From assembly GCA_964572275.1 (NCBI GenBank), contig CAZNED010000001.1, forward strand, positions 87,188 through 151,187: DNA of 64,000 bases, in the 5' to 3' direction. Each line of letters starts with the position of its first letter. The first letter of the stretch is position 1. This stretch comes from an uncultured Candidatus Saccharibacteria bacterium (lineage in GTDB: Bacteria; Patescibacteriota; Minisyncoccia; Minisyncoccales; UBA1441). Shown in pieces: positions 2,404 to 17,706 of this stretch. Under the pieces are notes generated by a model. The model saw nothing but the letters and a program-made list of their open reading frames with translations, ran no database searches and was not told the origin of the DNA. Both the position numbers and the translations under genes were made by a program.

Positions 2404-2904
2404 ATGGTTCAAAAAGCTATTGATTTGGTACCGGAAGACTGGAGGTCTCGTTTTCCTGAGACCGTGTCAGAGTTGGGATTGCTGGGTGAACGTACCCTGC
2501 AAGTTCTTCTGGAGAGATGGTCGCAAGAGAGCGAAGAAGCAGCCATCATCCAGCGGATCATGGAGGGAAACACCTCTCCCACTCCACCCTTAATCTTTCT
2601 CCGGCCGAACGACTGGTTGGAGAAGGGGTGCAGCGTCCTATGGATCAAGGTGAATCCCAAAAACGGCTCCATGAGAATCCATGGACCGATCGACATCATA
2701 GAGTTGTACTACGGTAAGGAAGGAGAGGTGATAGCAGCCAGGATGAAAAGCGGAGAGACCGTCCTGGCTCATCGCGTATTCCACCTCTATGAAATAGAGG
2801 TACTGAAGAAACATCCCCTGCTTCTGAAAGTCTGGCTAAGGGGAGTCTCTCCCCAAGACAGGGATCGTGTAAAGGAGGCGATCGAAGGGTTCTGGCTCCC
2901 CTAA
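2404..2904 (+). CDS. Hypothetical soluble protein, 166 aa, GC-rich orphan
   Basis: ORF track. GAGGGGG lies 5 nt upstream of the ATG. It has its own promoter and terminator. I recognise no family. Confidence 0.6.
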   Translation: MVQKAIDLVPEDWRSRFPETVSELGLLGERTLQVLLERWSQESEEAAIIQRIMEGNTSPTPPLIFLRPNDWLEKGCSVLWIKVNPKNGSMRIHGPIDIIELYYGKEGEVIAARMKSGETVLAHRVFHLYEIEVLKKHPLLLKVWLRGVSPQDRDRVKEAIEGFWLP

Positions 2905-2921
2905 AACCAGAAGGACCGGGT

Positions 2922-2960
2922 GGGCTCGATGCGTGGTATGCGTCGGGCCCTTTCTCATTT
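2922..2960 (+). terminator. Intrinsic terminator of the 166-aa ORF
   Basis: Stem GGGCTCGA/TCGGGCCC (one G-U pair) at 2922-2950, followed by TTTCTCATTT. Confidence 0.6.
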
Positions 2961-2995
2961 AAATAAAAACGGGAGCTGAATGGTTCAGCCCCCCC
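2961..2995 (-). terminator. Intrinsic terminator of the 29-aa micro-ORF
   Basis: Hairpin GGGAGCTGAA-TGG-TTCAGCCCCC at 2971-2995. On the minus strand it is followed by GTTTTTATTT. Confidence 0.6.
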
Positions 2996-3018
2996 CTCCC
3001 CAACCCTCTTTGTCTTTG

Positions 3019-3108
3019 TCATGGATGATACCGCCGCCACATACCCGAGATCAGAGATACGAGAATCAGCGCTCCGATGGCTATTCCGAAAAACTCGGCC
3101 AAAGACAT
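3019..3108 (-). CDS. 29-aa hydrophobic peptide (MSLAEFFGIAIGALILVSLISGMWRRYHP)
   Basis: Hand translation. AAGGAGGG lies 4-5 nt upstream of the ATG. One TM-like span plus a basic tail, with a dedicated terminator. Below the ORF-track cut-off. Confidence 0.55.
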   Translation of the reverse strand: MSLAEFFGIAIGALILVSLISGMWRRYHP

Positions 3109-3211
3109 AACTCCCTCCTTTTCGCCTAAGGCAATAATGTAAATATAGCATATAAGTTCTATACTGTAGATTGTTTTTTAAAAGAAATTGTAGTAACCTG
3201 AATTGTTTCCT

Positions 3212-3283
3212 GTCCTCGTAGCTCAACGGATAGAGCACTGGCCTGCGGAGCCAGAGATGCAGGTTCGATTCCTGCCGAGGACG
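3212..3283 (+). tRNA. tRNA-Arg, anticodon GCG as read
   Basis: Hand-folded cloverleaf. Acceptor GTCCTCG/CGAGGAC, D stem GCTC/GAGC, anticodon stem CTGGC/GCCAG with loop CTGCGGA, T arm CAGGT-TCGATTC-CCTGC. CCA is not encoded. Confidence 0.9.
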
Positions 3284-3293
3284 CATATAAAAA

Positions 3294-4675: not shown

Positions 4676-4703
4676 TTGACAAAACATAAATATGTGTTAT
4701 CCT
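4676..4703 (+). promoter_or_regulatory. Promoter of the GC-rich membrane-protein cassette
   Basis: TTGACA (4676-4681), a 16-nt spacer, then an extended -10 TGtTATCCT (4695-4703). Confidence 0.5.
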
Positions 4704-4724
4704 CATAATTGTAAGGAGGTGCAC

Positions 4725-5039
4725 ATGAAACTCGGTATCTTCTGGGCCGCCGTCGGTGGTACTAGCGTCGCGGCTCTCGTCTACCAAGCAGGAGCAGGTG
4801 TGTGGTTACTACTAGCCGCACTCATCTTCAATGTCGTCGTCGGTGTGATTGCGTGGCGACATGGGCGAGAGCGCCGTGCGATTATGATCATCGCGACGGT
4901 CGTCACAGTGGTTATTGCGGCGACACTCTTCGCGGCATTGTTCGCCACCAATCCGGCGAACGGAGTCATGACCATCCTAGTGATGGTCATCGCAGCGGAC
5001 GTCGCCATCGTGTGGAGATGGCGATGGACAAACATCTAA
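4725..5039 (+). CDS. 104-aa Ala/Val/Gly-rich small membrane protein (about 4 TM), GC-rich orphan
   Basis: AAGGAGG lies 5 nt upstream of the ATG at 4725; the track start at 4692 has no SD. Begins MKLGIFWAAVGGTSVAALVYQAGAGVWLLLAALIF... GC3-rich codons. Confidence 0.65.
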   Translation: MKLGIFWAAVGGTSVAALVYQAGAGVWLLLAALIFNVVVGVIAWRHGRERRAIMIIATVVTVVIAATLFAALFATNPANGVMTILVMVIAADVAIVWRWRWTNI

Positions 5040-5122: not shown

Positions 5123-7186
5123 ATGGATTTAGACTTAAACACAAAAACCTCTGATTTGCCAGGAATAGGCGCTGGATACAGCCGTAAGTTATTTGAAATA
5201 AATATTCAAACAGCTGAAGACTTATTACGATATTTCCCTTATCGTTATGACGATTTTTCAGATTTAAAAAAAATAAATCAAGTCAAAGTCGGAGAAAAAG
5301 TTTGTTTAAAAGGAGAAATCATCGAAATAAAAAACACTTTTACCTTTAGGAGAAGATTAATTATTACCGAAGCTTTTTTACGAGACCAAACCGGTCAAGT
5401 TAAAGTAGTTTGGTTTAACCAACCTTATCTATCTGAACAGCTCCAAGGTCAAACAGTTATTCTGGCGGGTAAAGCCACTGAAAAGAAAGGAGAAATTTAT
5501 TTAGCTAGTCCTATCGCGGAAAAAATAAAAGACTCTCCGACCCATGCCGGACGCATTGTTCCTATTTATCCGGAAACTAAAGGTCTAACTTCTCGGTGGT
5601 TGAGATATGTTATTAAACCACTATTAGAGCAGATGCAAGATATTGATGACCCCCTCCCCTCGTCTATCATCAAGCAACATCAACTAATGAATTTATCCGA
5701 AGCCCTGGCTCAAATTCATTTCCCCGATAATTTAAATCAAGCCGAAAAAGCTCGGAAAAGGTTTGCTTTCGAAGAGTTATTTTATATCCAATTAAGAACT
5801 CTCATCGCTAAAGCAGAGAATAAAAAGCAAGCCGCTATAAAAATACCAATCAATCTGCCATTAATCCAGAAATTCGTAAAATCATTACCGTTTGAATTAA
5901 CAGCTGGACAGAAAATAGCAATTTGGAGGATTTTAAAAGATATGGATCAAGAAGATCCTATGTCGCGTCTATTAGAAGGAGATGTCGGATCCGGCAAGAC
6001 AGCCGTTATGATGATACCTGCACTAAACACTATTTCATCAGGAGGACAAGTCGCCCTTATGGCCCCTACTGCTGTTTTAGCAAGACAACATTTTGATACA
6101 TTAAGACAGTTTTTCAAAGATTTCTCTATAAATATCGGCTTATTGACCAGCGATATACACTATTTAGGGCATCGTCAATGTTCTGCATCTAATATTATCG
6201 ATCAACTAAAATCAGGAAAAATAGATTTAATCATTGGCACCCATGCTTTAATTCAAGAAAGAATTAAATTTAAGAAATTAGCTTTTGTTGTTATCGATGA
6301 ACAACATCGTTTCGGCATTAGACAAAGAGCAAGATTGATGAAACCAGATCAGAAAGAAAAACCTCATTTACTGTCAATGACCGCCACCCCGATTCCTCGT
6401 ACTCTCGCTTTAACTGTTTATGGAGATTTAGATCTTTCTTTATTAAAAGAAAAGCCTCAAGAGAGAGGTGAAATCATTACTCAAATTATTAAACCCAATC
6501 AAAGGCGCGGAGCCTACAATCTTATTCGCCGAGAAATTAAGAAAGGGCACCAAGCTTTTATTATTTGTCCGCGCATAAAATCAGATTCAGAAGAAGATCA
6601 TATCAAAACTGTAAACAAAGAATATGAAAAATTATCAGAAGATATTTTTTCAGATTTGAAAGTGTCCCGTCTGCATGGGCAAATGAAGGCCACCGAAAAA
6701 GAGAGGGTTCTGAAAGGATTTCAGAAAAACAAAATAAATATATTAATTACTACCTCTGTTATCGAGGTAGGAATAGATATCCCTAACGCAACTATCATGA
6801 TTATCGAGGGCGCTGAAAGATTCGGCCTAGCCCAGCTTCATCAAATGAGAGGACGCATCGGTCGATCGAATCATGAATCTTATTGCCTACTATTTACTAG
6901 CTCTCCTGAGATAGAGAGCACTCGCCGACTATCGGCTTTAGTAAAATGCCACGATGGTTTTAAATTAGCTGAAAAAGATTTAGCCATCCGCGGACCTGGT
7001 TCTCTAACTGGACAAAATCAATGGGGAATCCCCGATTTAATAATGGCTAATTTGAAAGACTTAGATCTCGTAGAGAAAACCCGCCAAGCTGCGAAAGATT
7101 TACTTTCTGACGATCCAGAGCTAGAGAAACATATTCATCTAGCCGAAAAAGTTAAAAACATCGAAAGCATAGTCCATTTTGAATAA
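5123..7186 (+). CDS. recG: ATP-dependent DNA helicase RecG
   Basis: 687 aa. Wedge/OB N-terminal domain, Walker A GDVGSGKT, DEQHRFG, and helicase C-terminal motifs QLHQMRGRIGRS. Confidence 0.9.
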   Translation: MDLDLNTKTSDLPGIGAGYSRKLFEINIQTAEDLLRYFPYRYDDFSDLKKINQVKVGEKVCLKGEIIEIKNTFTFRRRLIITEAFLRDQTGQVKVVWFNQPYLSEQLQGQTVILAGKATEKKGEIYLASPIAEKIKDSPTHAGRIVPIYPETKGLTSRWLRYVIKPLLEQMQDIDDPLPSSIIKQHQLMNLSEALAQIHFPDNLNQAEKARKRFAFEELFYIQLRTLIAKAENKKQAAIKIPINLPLIQKFVKSLPFELTAGQKIAIWRILKDMDQEDPMSRLLEGDVGSGKTAVMMIPALNTISSGGQVALMAPTAVLARQHFDTLRQFFKDFSINIGLLTSDIHYLGHRQCSASNIIDQLKSGKIDLIIGTHALIQERIKFKKLAFVVIDEQHRFGIRQRARLMKPDQKEKPHLLSMTATPIPRTLALTVYGDLDLSLLKEKPQERGEIITQIIKPNQRRGAYNLIRREIKKGHQAFIICPRIKSDSEEDHIKTVNKEYEKLSEDIFSDLKVSRLHGQMKATEKERVLKGFQKNKINILITTSVIEVGIDIPNATIMIIEGAERFGLAQLHQMRGRIGRSNHESYCLLFTSSPEIESTRRLSALVKCHDGFKLAEKDLAIRGPGSLTGQNQWGIPDLIMANLKDLDLVEKTRQAAKDLLSDDPELEKHIHLAEKVKNIESIVHFE

Positions 7187-13394: not shown

Positions 13395-14069
13395 TTAACT
13401 TAAAGGTAAAGTTGGCATTGAATTTTCAGATTTGCGACCCCAAGCTGCTATACCTAGAAAAACATAAAAAACTATTACACCGACTCCTGGAAGCAAAGAA
13501 GTCAAAGCCCACCATTCCGGACAACCTATTCGAGAGAATATCTTCAAGTGCCAAAAGAAGATAAAAACCGATAAAGTTGTCATCGCTAGAATATTAATTA
13601 TCGGGATCGGTAAAGTTAGGATCAGTAGCATGGGCCACCAATGCTTCTGGGCCGTTTTGCTTATCAAATAGAGATTTACGATCGGAATCCAGGCCAGCCA
13701 AGCAGGCTTTACTCCCAGTTTCTTCGCCAATTTCATGTAAACCAGGGAAGTATAGACATATACACCAATCAAAATGATTAATATTAAGGGTATCAGAAAT
13801 ACCATTAAGATGATTAAACCAGAGACAAATTCTTCTAATTTCTCAGAATCAATATAAATATTTTGTTCTCCATTTAAATCAGGCGAAGAAACATCAATTA
13901 TTCCCGACAAAGACTCTCCTTCTAAAATATTTTCATCGGAATTTGCTACCTCCGCCGCAGTATTAATATCATCATTCAATGGCAATTCCGCGGACACAGA
14001 CAGGGTCGCTATGATAATCCCAGATATGATTAAAGCGAGAGCCGTTAGTTTTAAAAAATATTTTTTCAT
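13395..14069 (-). CDS. Multi-pass membrane protein with signal peptide, unknown function
   Basis: 224 aa. Signal peptide followed by 4-5 hydrophobic spans. Confidence 0.6.
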   Translation of the reverse strand: MKKYFLKLTALALIISGIIIATLSVSAELPLNDDINTAAEVANSDENILEGESLSGIIDVSSPDLNGEQNIYIDSEKLEEFVSGLIILMVFLIPLILIILIGVYVYTSLVYMKLAKKLGVKPAWLAWIPIVNLYLISKTAQKHWWPMLLILTLPIPIINILAMTTLSVFIFFWHLKIFSRIGCPEWWALTSLLPGVGVIVFYVFLGIAAWGRKSENSMPTLPLS

Positions 14070-14135: not shown

Positions 14136-14164
14136 TTGTTGATTTTCGATAATTTATATATAAT
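14136..14164 (+). promoter_or_regulatory. Promoter of structured RNA R0
   Basis: TTGTTG (14136-14141), a 17-nt spacer, then TATAAT (14159-14164). Confidence 0.6.
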
Positions 14165-14170
14165 GAATAT

Positions 14171-14395
14171 TAGCAGTACCCGGAGGGAGCATTTCCCCTT
14201 CAAGTTTGTACGCTTCGGACGGGATGTCTTCTCGTTCGGCGTGTTCCCCCCTCCGGCAGGTATCCTGGAGAAAGGACGTGCGTTTCCTGACCGTAGAGAG
14301 GTCCGGTTTGGCACACACCCGTGCCTCGCACCTAAAGGGAGCGCACTCCTTCTCCATGATCATATGGTCCTCGCAAAGGGTAGCGAGGACTTTTG
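14171..14395 (+). ncRNA. GC-rich structured RNA of about 225 nt (R0), family unknown
   Basis: Helix CCGGAGGG (14180-14187) pairs with CCCTCCGG (14249-14256). A 15-bp helix pairs GGAGAAAGGACGTGCGT (14267-14283) with GCGCACTCCTTCTCC (14341-14355). Inner hairpin GGCAC/GTGCC (14310-14325). Terminator GTCCTCGC-AAAGGGTA-GCGAGGAC (14367-14390) followed by TTTT. No credible ORF. Confidence 0.6.
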
Positions 14396-14406
14396 CAATA
14401 TTTCTC

Positions 14407-14435
14407 TTGACATTCTGTCAATAATGCGCTAGATT
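14407..14435 (+). promoter_or_regulatory. Promoter of sRNA-1
   Basis: TTGACA (14407-14412), a 17-nt spacer containing TGACA-N3-TGTCA, then TAGATT (14430-14435). Confidence 0.6.
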
Positions 14436-14441
14436 ATGAGT

Positions 14442-14559
14442 GAGGAAGGGAGAGCGTGCTCAGTCGTTGGTTGCTAGGTGACGTGAAGTATCGTTGAGCA
14501 CGCTCTCTTCCTCCAGTGTATGGGACTCTCGCATGGTGTGTGCGAGAGTTTCTCTTTTT
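14442..14559 (+). ncRNA. Small RNA sRNA-1 (about 118 nt): long 5' hairpin plus terminator
   Basis: Stem of about 20 bp: GAGGAAGGGAGAGCGTGCTCA (14442-14462) with TGAGCACGCTCTCTTCCTC (14495-14513). The loop carries GGTGACGTG (14477-14485). Terminator ACTCTCGCA-TGGTGTG-TGCGAGAGT (14525-14549) plus a T-run. Confidence 0.7.
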
Positions 14560-14584
14560 ATAAACTATTCGGCCTTGAATGCCA

Positions 14585-14613
14585 TTGACTTTTGAGGTTA
14601 TTATGTCAGGATT
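14585..14613 (+). promoter_or_regulatory. Promoter of sRNA-2
   Basis: TTGACT (14585-14590), a 17-nt spacer, then AGGATT (14608-14613). The block TATGTCAGGATTAAT nearly matches the one at 2366-2380. Confidence 0.6.
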
Positions 14614-14619
14614 AATCAG

Positions 14620-14753
14620 AATGAGGCCGGGGAGGAGGAAGAGCATCACCTCCTATGTTCGGTGACGTCGCTGTTCCCGCTTGTGTACCTCCTCCCCCTG
14701 CCTCTTGCTCTGTGATCCCTTGCGCATGGTGTTTATGTGCAGGGGTTCTTTTT
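14620..14753 (+). ncRNA. Small RNA sRNA-2 (about 134 nt), paralog of sRNA-1
   Basis: Stem GGGGAGGAGG (14629-14638) with CCTCCTCCCC (14688-14697) plus 3 outer bp. The loop carries GGTGACGT (14661-14668) and ATCACCTCCT (14645-14654). Terminator CCCTTGCGCA/TGTGCAGGGG (14717-14745) plus a T-run. The tail TTTTTATAAAC is identical to that of sRNA-1. Confidence 0.7.
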
Positions 14754-14767
14754 ATAAACACAAAAAA

Positions 14768-14792
14768 AGACGGAATTGCACACCTTCCGTCT
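14768..14792. terminator. Bidirectional terminator (RRM gene / sRNA cluster)
   Basis: AGACGGAA/TTCCGTCT stem flanked by an A-run and a T-run. Confidence 0.7.
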
Positions 14793-16481: not shown

Positions 16482-16509
16482 TTGATGGCAAATCAGATTA
16501 TGCTAAAAT
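16482..16509 (+). promoter_or_regulatory. Promoter of GC-rich element D
   Basis: TTGATG (16482-16487), a 16-nt spacer, then an extended -10 TGcTAAAAT (16501-16509). Confidence 0.55.
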
Positions 16510-16515
16510 TAGACA

Positions 16516-16730
16516 GAGCGAAGAGCATTCCTTGGTCTAGTAAGCACAAGAATTCTCTTCGAAATGAACAAAACGCGCCGAAAAAGGAGGAAAACAATGA
16601 AAAGGCGCCGAGGTATGAGTCTCGGGACTGGTGACGTGCCGTCGACCCGCTCCGAAGTCGAGGTGTCCTAGAACCGCGATCCGGTTCACAGGCACCATGG
16701 GGGTGCTTCCGTGAAGCGCCCCCTTTGCTT
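16516..16730 (+). ncRNA. GC-rich structured small transcript (element D), possibly dual-function
   Basis: Stems CGAAGAG/CTCTTCG, GAACCG/CGGTTC and GTGCC/GGCAC. Terminal hairpin GGGGGTGCTT-CCGTG-AAGCGCCCCC (16699-16723) followed by TTTGCTTTG. Shares ATGAGT (16615-16620) and GGTGACGTG (16630-16638) with sRNA-1. It is antisense to the flanking minus-strand genes. Confidence 0.5.
16597..16671 (+). CDS. Candidate 24-codon ORF (MKRRRGMSLGTGDVPSTRSEVEVS) inside element D
   Basis: AGGAGG (16585-16590) lies 6 nt upstream of the ATG. A coding role is unproven. Confidence 0.3.
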   Translation: MKRRRGMSLGTGDVPSTRSEVEVS

Positions 16731-16738
16731 TGCAAATA

Positions 16739-17248: not shown

Positions 17249-17369
17249 AATTCTATTTTATCATAAAAAAATTATAAATATATTTAGCTGTATTTAAATT
17301 GGTAATATTCAGATTAATTGACAAAATATCTTTTTGTTATAACATATATAAATTAGGAGGTGGTGGTGT

Positions 17370-17651
17370 ATGGCGAATTCTCATCCGGGAACTCTAGGAC
17401 CGTGGACTTGGGATCAGAGAGCGAAAGAAGCTCTCCTCCCTGTGCTCGGTCCAGCCGCAACGGAAAGAGCCATGAAGGAGGTGAAGGGGTGTCAATCGGC
17501 TCATTTCTACGTTCCTAAGGGACGTGCCTTCGAGGCGGCGCAAGCACTTAGCGCAACACAACCAGATCCAGGATATTGTGCCGCATACAGTGTTCGCGCT
17601 ATCAGCACAACCAGAATCGTCTTGAGCGCCGTCCCTAATACGGCCTCATAA
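17370..17651 (+). CDS. Hypothetical 93-aa GC-rich orphan protein
   Basis: AGGAGG (17355-17360) lies 9 nt upstream of the ATG. Upstream are TTGACA (17318-17323) and TGtTATAAC (17335-17343). It has its own terminator. I recognise no family. Confidence 0.55.
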   Translation: MANSHPGTLGPWTWDQRAKEALLPVLGPAATERAMKEVKGCQSAHFYVPKGRAFEAAQALSATQPDPGYCAAYSVRAISTTRIVLSAVPNTAS

Positions 17652-17670
17652 CATTCGAGATTTCCAGGGG

Positions 17671-17706
17671 AGGTCCGGTAGTGTTTACCGGGCCTTTTCC
17701 TCTTTT
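17671..17706. terminator. Terminator of the 93-aa ORF (convergent with the ASCH-like gene)
   Basis: AGGTCCGG-TAGTGTTTA-CCGGGCCT followed by TTTTCCTCTTTT. Confidence 0.65.

Follow-up and report, generated by a model that had tools for sequence, protein, structure and literature searches.

R0, a putative stand-alone structured small RNA gene at the head of a tandem array next to an RRM gene in Patescibacteria (CPR)

Background

Tandem multi-copy small RNA (sRNA) families include LhrC1-5 of Listeria, PrrF1/PrrF2 of Pseudomonas, OmrA/OmrB of E. coli and Qrr1-5 of Vibrio. The LhrC RNAs carry CU-rich motifs, and LhrC blocks the Shine-Dalgarno (SD) sequence. CsrB, RsmY and RsmZ are protein-sequestering sRNAs, and the bacterial Rsr-Y RNA/YrlA is a non-coding RNA located beside the gene of its binding protein. 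In AT-rich genomes, GC-rich islands serve to detect structured non-coding RNA genes.

The locus described here lies within a stretch of 64,000 nucleotides, called the window below, and comprises three tandem units of the plus strand, R0, R1 and R2, placed between a DUF5684-like gene and an RRM_1 gene. These units resemble the LhrC, PrrF, Omr and Qrr families in their head-to-tail arrangement, in the sigma-70 promoter and intrinsic terminator that each possesses, and in an origin that is thought to be duplication. On the other hand, R0 has neither sequence nor covariance-model similarity to those families, and with ~223 nt in two domains it is much longer. In R0-R2 the CU-rich motifs are found in helices, while those of LhrC are in loops; no conserved seed was found, and the paralogy of R0, R1 and R2 is not demonstrable by sequence. 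Blocking of SD sequences in the manner of LhrC is unlikely here, since the host hardly uses them.

With 6S RNA, R0 shares a stand-alone gene, a high degree of structure, a length of ~200 nt, a housekeeping-type promoter and a poorly conserved sequence. It differs in that the 6S model (RF00013) gave no match at E<=10, in that neither its minimum free energy (MFE) fold nor its centroid fold presents a single extended helix with a large central bubble, and in that the copy number and length of R0-type units vary among close relatives. Like CsrB/RsmY/RsmZ and the Y RNA/YrlA, the units are structured and stand-alone, carry short repeated motifs (GGA, CCUCC) and adjoin the gene of an RNA-binding protein; unlike them, they have no match in Rfam, their motifs are mostly paired, and the gene next to them codes for an RRM protein in place of CsrA or Ro. 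R0-R2 also form a GC-rich island (51-57% GC, against 38% in the genome) of the kind used for the detection of non-coding RNA, a property that is not diagnostic by itself in this genome.

We propose, with a probability of about 0.65, that R0 represents a genuine small RNA gene, non-coding and ~223 nt long, which heads a tandem array of independently transcribed hairpin RNAs.

Promoter, predicted fold and terminator of R0

The promoter TTGTTG-17-TATAAT, pointed out in a preliminary description of this DNA, stands as it was placed; it matches the sigma-70 consensus at 9 of 12 positions, and its -10 box is perfect (Table 1). The transcription start is predicted at ~14171-14173. With a GC content of 57% (38% in the window), the R0 RNA has an MFE of -98.2 kcal/mol, against a mean of -74.9 +/- 4.7 for 200 dinucleotide shuffles (z = -4.9). 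None of the 200 shuffles reached this stability, and a repeat run gave z = -5.3. The earlier characterization of a highly structured, GC-rich RNA of ~225 nt is thus borne out, with ~223 nt as the length.

The predicted fold comprises two hairpin domains followed by the terminator hairpin. Inside domain 1, a hairpin of 10 bp (14215-14239) is accompanied by a C/U-rich stretch that is predicted to be unpaired. The helix of domain 2 is built of 3+7+3+11 bp (14262-14288 / 14336-14360) and includes GGAGAAAGGACGUGCGU/GCGCACUCCUUCUCC. The junction hairpins are GACC/GGUC and GGU/ACC+GGCAC/GUGCC, and the GGCAC/GUGCC hairpin enclosed by the helix pairs 14310-14314 with 14321-14325. The two long helices and the enclosed GGCAC/GTGCC hairpin had been described before and are confirmed. 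The two domains have similar starts, GUACCCGGAGGGAG and GUAUCCUGGAGAAAGG, which in our opinion suggests the internal duplication of a hairpin.

The terminator stem has 9 bp (14366-14374 / 14383-14391), and its tail is only UUUU-G, with one U within the stem. Of the "clean terminator" noted earlier, the good hairpin stands, but the tail is short and its T-run is under the threshold of the terminator scanner, which called the terminators of R1 and R2 and left that of R0 uncalled. As the U-tail is short, read-through into R1 is plausible. In the model that we favour, the sigma-70-type promoter would drive R0 from ~14171, and transcription would end at the 14366-14394 hairpin, probably with some read-through.

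Table 1. Features of the R0-R2 locus (window coordinates)
Feature	Position	Strand	Description
DUF5684-like membrane protein gene	13395-14069	-	Divergent from R0; Pfam 23.6 bits, cut-off 27.4
R0 promoter	14136-14164	+	-35 TTGTTG 14136-14141, 17-nt spacer, -10 TATAAT 14159-14164
R0 transcript (predicted), ~223 nt, non-coding	14171-14394	+	Based on fold z, no Rfam match, no conserved ORF
R0 domain 1	14180-14256	+	Closing helix CCGGAGGG 14180-14187 / CCCUCCGG 14249-14256
R0 domain 2	14262-14360	+	Interrupted 24-bp helix closing a three-way junction; part conserved with L011-A
R0 terminator hairpin	14366-14395	+	GGUCCUCGC-AAAGGGUA-GCGAGGACU, short U-tail
R1	14407-14561	+	Promoter TTGACA-17-TAGATT 14407-14435; hairpin 14442-14513; strong terminator 14522-14552
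R2	14575-14756	+	Promoter TTGAAT-18-TATTAT 14575-14604; hairpin 14617-14712; terminator 14717-14745
Bidirectional terminator hairpin after the RRM stop codon	14765-14796	.	Separates the RRM gene from R2
RRM_1 RNA-binding protein gene, 89 aa	14808-15077	-	Convergent with the array; Pfam RRM_1 82.9 bits

Organization of the array

Two features go beyond the preliminary description: R0 heads a row of three tandem units, within a module conserved in a small Patescibacteria clade, and its domain 1 is lineage-specific. R1 (fold z = -5.4; promoter 10/12) and R2 (fold z = -4.8; hairpin arms GGGGAGGAGG/CCUCCUCCCC) follow on the same strand, and a spacer of only ~12-20 nt separates each terminator from the next -35 box. 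The neighbour families at the locus are DUF5652, DUF5671 and DUF5684. Together with the labels that submitters gave to related MAGs (Patescibacteria group bacterium UBA1441 or Candidatus Saccharibacteria), they indicate an uncultivated Patescibacteria (CPR) bacterium.

The 3' hairpin of the RRM gene has a 21-nt core, ACGGAATTGCACACCTTCCGT (14770-14790), that is invariant in the clade, apart from one loop change in L056. In mRNA sense, the hairpin including its 9-nt loop (GGUGUGCAA) is invariant in the lineages whose RRM protein is at least 83% identical. It occurs once within the window and was located at 5348-5380 in L011, 5660-5688 in L014, 3272-3304 in L046, 4117-4149 in L050, 945-977 in L054 and 2779-2811 in L058. 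Since the neighbour proteins are only 45-70% identical, this invariance points to a functional 3'-UTR element beyond the terminator.

The loops of the unit terminators are ~90% G/U (UGGUGUG, GUGUU, UGUAU, UUGUUG, GUGU), and those of protein genes at the same loci are mixed. Terminators with G/U loops are located at 14522-14552 and 14717-14745 in the window; 5772-5797, 5643-5669 and 5400-5421 in L011; 3322-3351 in L046; and 998-1025 in L054. Common descent of the units could explain such loops, as could a recognition feature that they share.

Comparison of R0 with its positional orthologue

Alignment of the whole intergenic regions of the window and of the comparison locus L011, from the nearest distinct species, showed R0, R1 and R2 to correspond to L011-A, L011-B and L011-C, in the same order. 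The flanking proteins of the two loci are 54-72% identical, and the RRM protein 98%. L011-A, with 145 nt, is 80 nt shorter than R0, and domain 1 is reduced in it to a mini-hairpin of 4-5 bp. As this domain, a third of R0, is missing from L011-A, it may be dispensable. In domain 2, the core UGGAG/CUCCA is invariant between the two RNAs, and the main helix, counted inward from it, has 21 bp in R0 and 19 bp in L011-A. The helix arms are 65-73% identical and the enclosed three-way junction 47%; in the terminator stem, three pairs are kept through two-sided changes. The promoter of L011-A is weak (7/12), with a TGn extended -10 recognized by eye.

The search with nhmmer detected no relative of R0, L011-A included, and matched R1 with L011-B at E = 0.005. 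Because R0 has no sequence-detectable homologue, its covariation amounts to one pairwise comparison with an ambiguous 5' half; in the RNAalifold analysis of R0 and L011-A, MAFFT misaligned this half, and only the terminator counts are usable. In the comparisons, an approach that the preliminary description had suggested, the framing of the transcription units and the long helices are conserved.

Conservation in related lineages

Relatives of the locus were gathered via the flanking proteins and the invariant 21-mer of the RRM terminator. Units were found in the lineages of the window, L011/L016, L056, L014/L013-L019, L017/L046, L018/L050/L062-65, L058-61 and L054. The order RRM - intergenic region - DUF5684, with one to three units, is present in 8/8 lineages with an RRM protein identity of 81% or more: three units in the window and in L011/L016; two in L056; and one in each of the other five. 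No units were found in the relatives with an RRM protein at most 75% identical (L057 and the Peregrinibacteria L020 and L021), nor in L012, which has a DUF5684 homologue and no neighbouring RRM gene. A metagenome scan with the invariant 21-mer recovered only five contigs and no new lineage, and a scan of a genome collection with the RRM protein returned four close relatives, the other 26 matches being distant and without the array. Two members of the RRM protein cluster, P0086 and P0089, share at least 90% identity with the RRM protein of the window.

Every unit folds better than its shuffles, with z from -2.4 to -7.8. A promoter of at least 9/12 is found at the equivalent position in 12 of the 13 units, L011-A being the exception, and the pairing of promoter and terminator was seen for every unit in every lineage.

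Within the sampled population, which SRR13427971, SRR8437217 and JGI 3300028299 are among the samples to contain, ten contigs from several samples are 99.9-100% identical, and the 739-nt intergenic region has only two SNPs, too few for covariation analysis. With the first, A>G at 14313, an A-U pair in the GGCAC/GUGCC hairpin of R0 becomes G.U, and pairing is preserved; the second, T>C at 14727, creates a C.A mismatch beside the loop, at the top of the R2 terminator stem. Judged by these comparisons, R0-type units appear to be fast-evolving, lineage-specific tandem small RNA genes in a narrow clade of Patescibacteria (CPR).

Relation of the array to the RRM gene

The array is directly downstream of the RRM gene and convergent with it in all eight array-bearing lineages, and it is missing where the RRM protein is at most 75% identical and the conserved 3' hairpin is lost. 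In addition, the RRM protein (81-98% identical) and its invariant 3' hairpin are far more conserved than the neighbour proteins, and G/U-rich terminator loops occur in the units and in the RRM mRNA, unlike ordinary gene terminators. These features speak for a reading in which the adjacent RRM protein would have R0 and the other units as its RNA partners (sponge, reservoir or chaperone clients). Gene and RNAs would then form a self-contained riboregulatory module, with an autoregulatory site in the invariant 3' hairpin of the RRM mRNA. However, the co-location may be mere inherited synteny, as it concerns one narrow clade in which no lineage separates the two; the terminator loop of R0, AAAGGGUA, is not G/U-rich; and the window shows no enrichment of the loop motif GGUGUGCAA. 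We consider such a partnership unlikely, if worth keeping in mind. More doubtful still is the idea that the RRM gene, its invariant 3' hairpin and R0-R2 are a dedicated riboregulatory module with the hairpin RNAs as cognate ligands or sponges; the same holds for the role that the RRM protein would have in it, that of an RNA chaperone or partner in a leaderless, nearly SD-less Patescibacteria lineage.

Independent transcription or processing of a precursor

R0 could also be the 5' part of a long R0-R1-R2 precursor, leaky at 14394 and subsequently processed, in which the internal promoter-like sites would be secondary. The short U-tail of R0, uncalled as a terminator, is in agreement with this, and so are the common strand and the ~12-20 nt spacers; long perfect helices would moreover suit RNase III. 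Against it, R1 and R2 have their own promoters of at least 9/12 (10/12 for R1) and strong terminators, and the promoter-terminator pairing recurs in every lineage, which would be unexpected if the promoters were irrelevant. A precursor of this type is quite improbable in our judgement.

Coding potential and known RNA families

The ORFs spanning R0 have 43-98 aa, lie on both strands and run through the terminator. None of them matched Pfam, and none was conserved in the orthologous L011 region by tblastn (best E = 0.22), where all frames are broken by stop codons; automated gene callers placed conflicting R0 ORFs on opposite strands of sister contigs. These results agree with the preliminary description, which saw no plausible ORF and took a riboswitch to be unlikely. 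R0 is not a riboswitch or 5' leader, since no same-strand coding gene follows it: between it and a convergent gene lie R1 and R2, which have promoters and terminators of their own.

It is very improbable that R0 is a small-protein gene or a non-functional GC-rich hairpin DNA, for example the relic of a mobile element. Some annotation of the ORFs by gene callers exists, and other GC-rich islands in the window look protein-coding, but the ORFs cross the terminator, have neither Pfam matches nor conservation in L011, and are called on conflicting strands. As for a relic, nhmmer found no second copy of R0 in the window or the comparison loci, and no phage or plasmid relatives were found. The promoter-terminator framing and the helices, maintained across lineages, speak for a function.

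In Rfam 15, no family overlaps 14136-14395 at the gathering score, nor at E<=10 with permissive filters; the search, which the preliminary description had also suggested, gave no assignment, and R0 is absent from this release. The models of SRP, RNase P and 6S RNA did not match R0 even at E<=10, and ARAGORN, which found only 6 tRNAs, reported no tmRNA at R0, in agreement with the preliminary description, which could not match R0 to any of these four RNAs. The least probable reading is that R0 is a housekeeping RNA (6S, SRP, RNase P or tmRNA) too diverged for the Rfam models to recognize. This reading can appeal to the divergent RNAs of CPR genomes and to an R0 that is about 6S-sized, stand-alone and strongly structured, but it is opposed by the lack of model matches with lax filters and of an ARAGORN tmRNA, by two domains with a three-way junction in place of the single long 6S helix with its central bubble, by the loss of a third of the length and nearly all identity between loci whose flanking proteins are 54-72% identical, and by a copy number of 0 to 3 per locus. 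R0 is a predicted independent transcription unit, defined in sequence by promoter and terminator and without coding potential. On these sequence criteria, it is supported as a putative stand-alone, structured, non-coding small RNA gene that matches none of the known RNA families.

Shared design and descent of the units

A common design recurs in the units, with a purine-rich 5' arm that pairs with a pyrimidine-rich 3' arm bearing CCUCC, a short linker and a terminator stem of the GGaCUCUCGC type. CCUCC and GAGAG are each present in 9 of 12 independent units, R0 having both, and the maximum in 200 shuffles was 8. The 3' modules (pyrimidine arm, linker and terminator stem), that of R0 included, align on this design, which suggests the duplication of one ancestral hairpin-RNA gene. 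After such a duplication, the interiors would have diverged quickly while the helices were maintained.

A covariance model was built from the alignable single-unit sub-family, which covers few lineages (effective number of sequences 1.8). In 89 kb, its best match was L011-A (E ~0.05), among terminator-driven noise, and R0 was unreported at E<=10. Considering this outcome and that of nhmmer, the common descent of the units is plausible and unproven; we infer that R0, R1 and R2 are paralogues.

Possible mode of action

As a small RNA gene, R0 would presumably act in trans, as a regulatory or protein-binding RNA. The search for an unpaired motif or seed conserved between R0 and L011-A found none, and a search for trans-target complementarity in the 64-kb window gave nothing above chance. 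Seed-based pairing with mRNAs is less likely, since the helices are conserved and the single-stranded sequence is not. Our best guess is a structure-dependent interaction, in which a protein would recognize the long helix together with the terminator module; the adjacent RRM protein would be the obvious candidate partner.

Mimicry of SD or anti-SD sequences was considered as well, on account of arms resembling GGAGG and CCUCC and of AUCACCUCCU in R2, a string like the 3' tail of 16S rRNA. This was rejected as unlikely, because no more than 6 of 45 genes have an SD-like motif and many starts appear to be leaderless. A -10-like box lies 3-15 nt before the ATG in 21 of 47 genes, as against 10.7% of random positions. 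The spacing is exactly 6-7 nt in nine of the 21, and leaderless mRNAs therefore appear to be common in this Patescibacteria lineage.

Other elements in the window

Two further GC-rich elements of the plus strand have no match in Rfam. The first (17318-17705) has ~350 nt, a promoter TTGACA-17-TATAAC, a strong terminator at 17667-17699 and z = -3.5. It contains a 93-aa ORF (17370-17651) with a perfect SD (AGGAGG, 9 nt, ATG), which is odd for this genome; the ORF matched no Pfam family and, among 5.8 billion proteins, had no homologue except an identical copy from the same population. The element represents an orphan gene or else a further structured RNA. The second (16490-16735) has ~220 nt, a promoter, a terminator GGGGGUGCUUC/GAAGCGCCCCC at 16699-16723 and z = -3.8, and includes GUGACGUGCC; its equivalent in L011 differs and may be transcribed from the other strand.

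The GC-rich regions 2404-2904 and 4692-5039, both on the plus strand, contain plausible ORFs for a soluble protein of 166 aa and a membrane protein of 115 aa, respectively, so GC-richness alone is no marker of RNA genes here. These two genes may be horizontally acquired. An ORF of 196 aa on the minus strand (2696-3286) overlaps a tRNA-Arg and is probably spurious.

The string GACGTGC, which the preliminary description reported as shared between R0 and another element (D), is present, but not beyond chance: the window has 3 copies, all on the plus strand and inside GC-rich elements, where 1.5 are expected, and at least 3 were found in 21 of 100 shuffles. It was rejected as a shared functional motif, as was GTGACGT, also at chance level.

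Implications

A search of the full-text literature returned nothing relevant on sRNAs of Patescibacteria (CPR) or on their link to RRM proteins, and the small-RNA biology of this group is largely uncharted. Taken alone, R0 is an orphan sRNA candidate of narrow distribution, and findings of this kind are common. The databases have no counterpart of it, but its type, that of lineage-specific, stand-alone bacterial small RNAs, is an ordinary one. R0-R2 offer clean candidate sRNA genes, with consensus promoters and terminators, beside the gene of an RRM protein, which counts among the few RNA-binding proteins that such small genomes conserve. If this protein proved to be the partner of R0-R2, the locus would represent an RRM-based sRNA system in bacteria.
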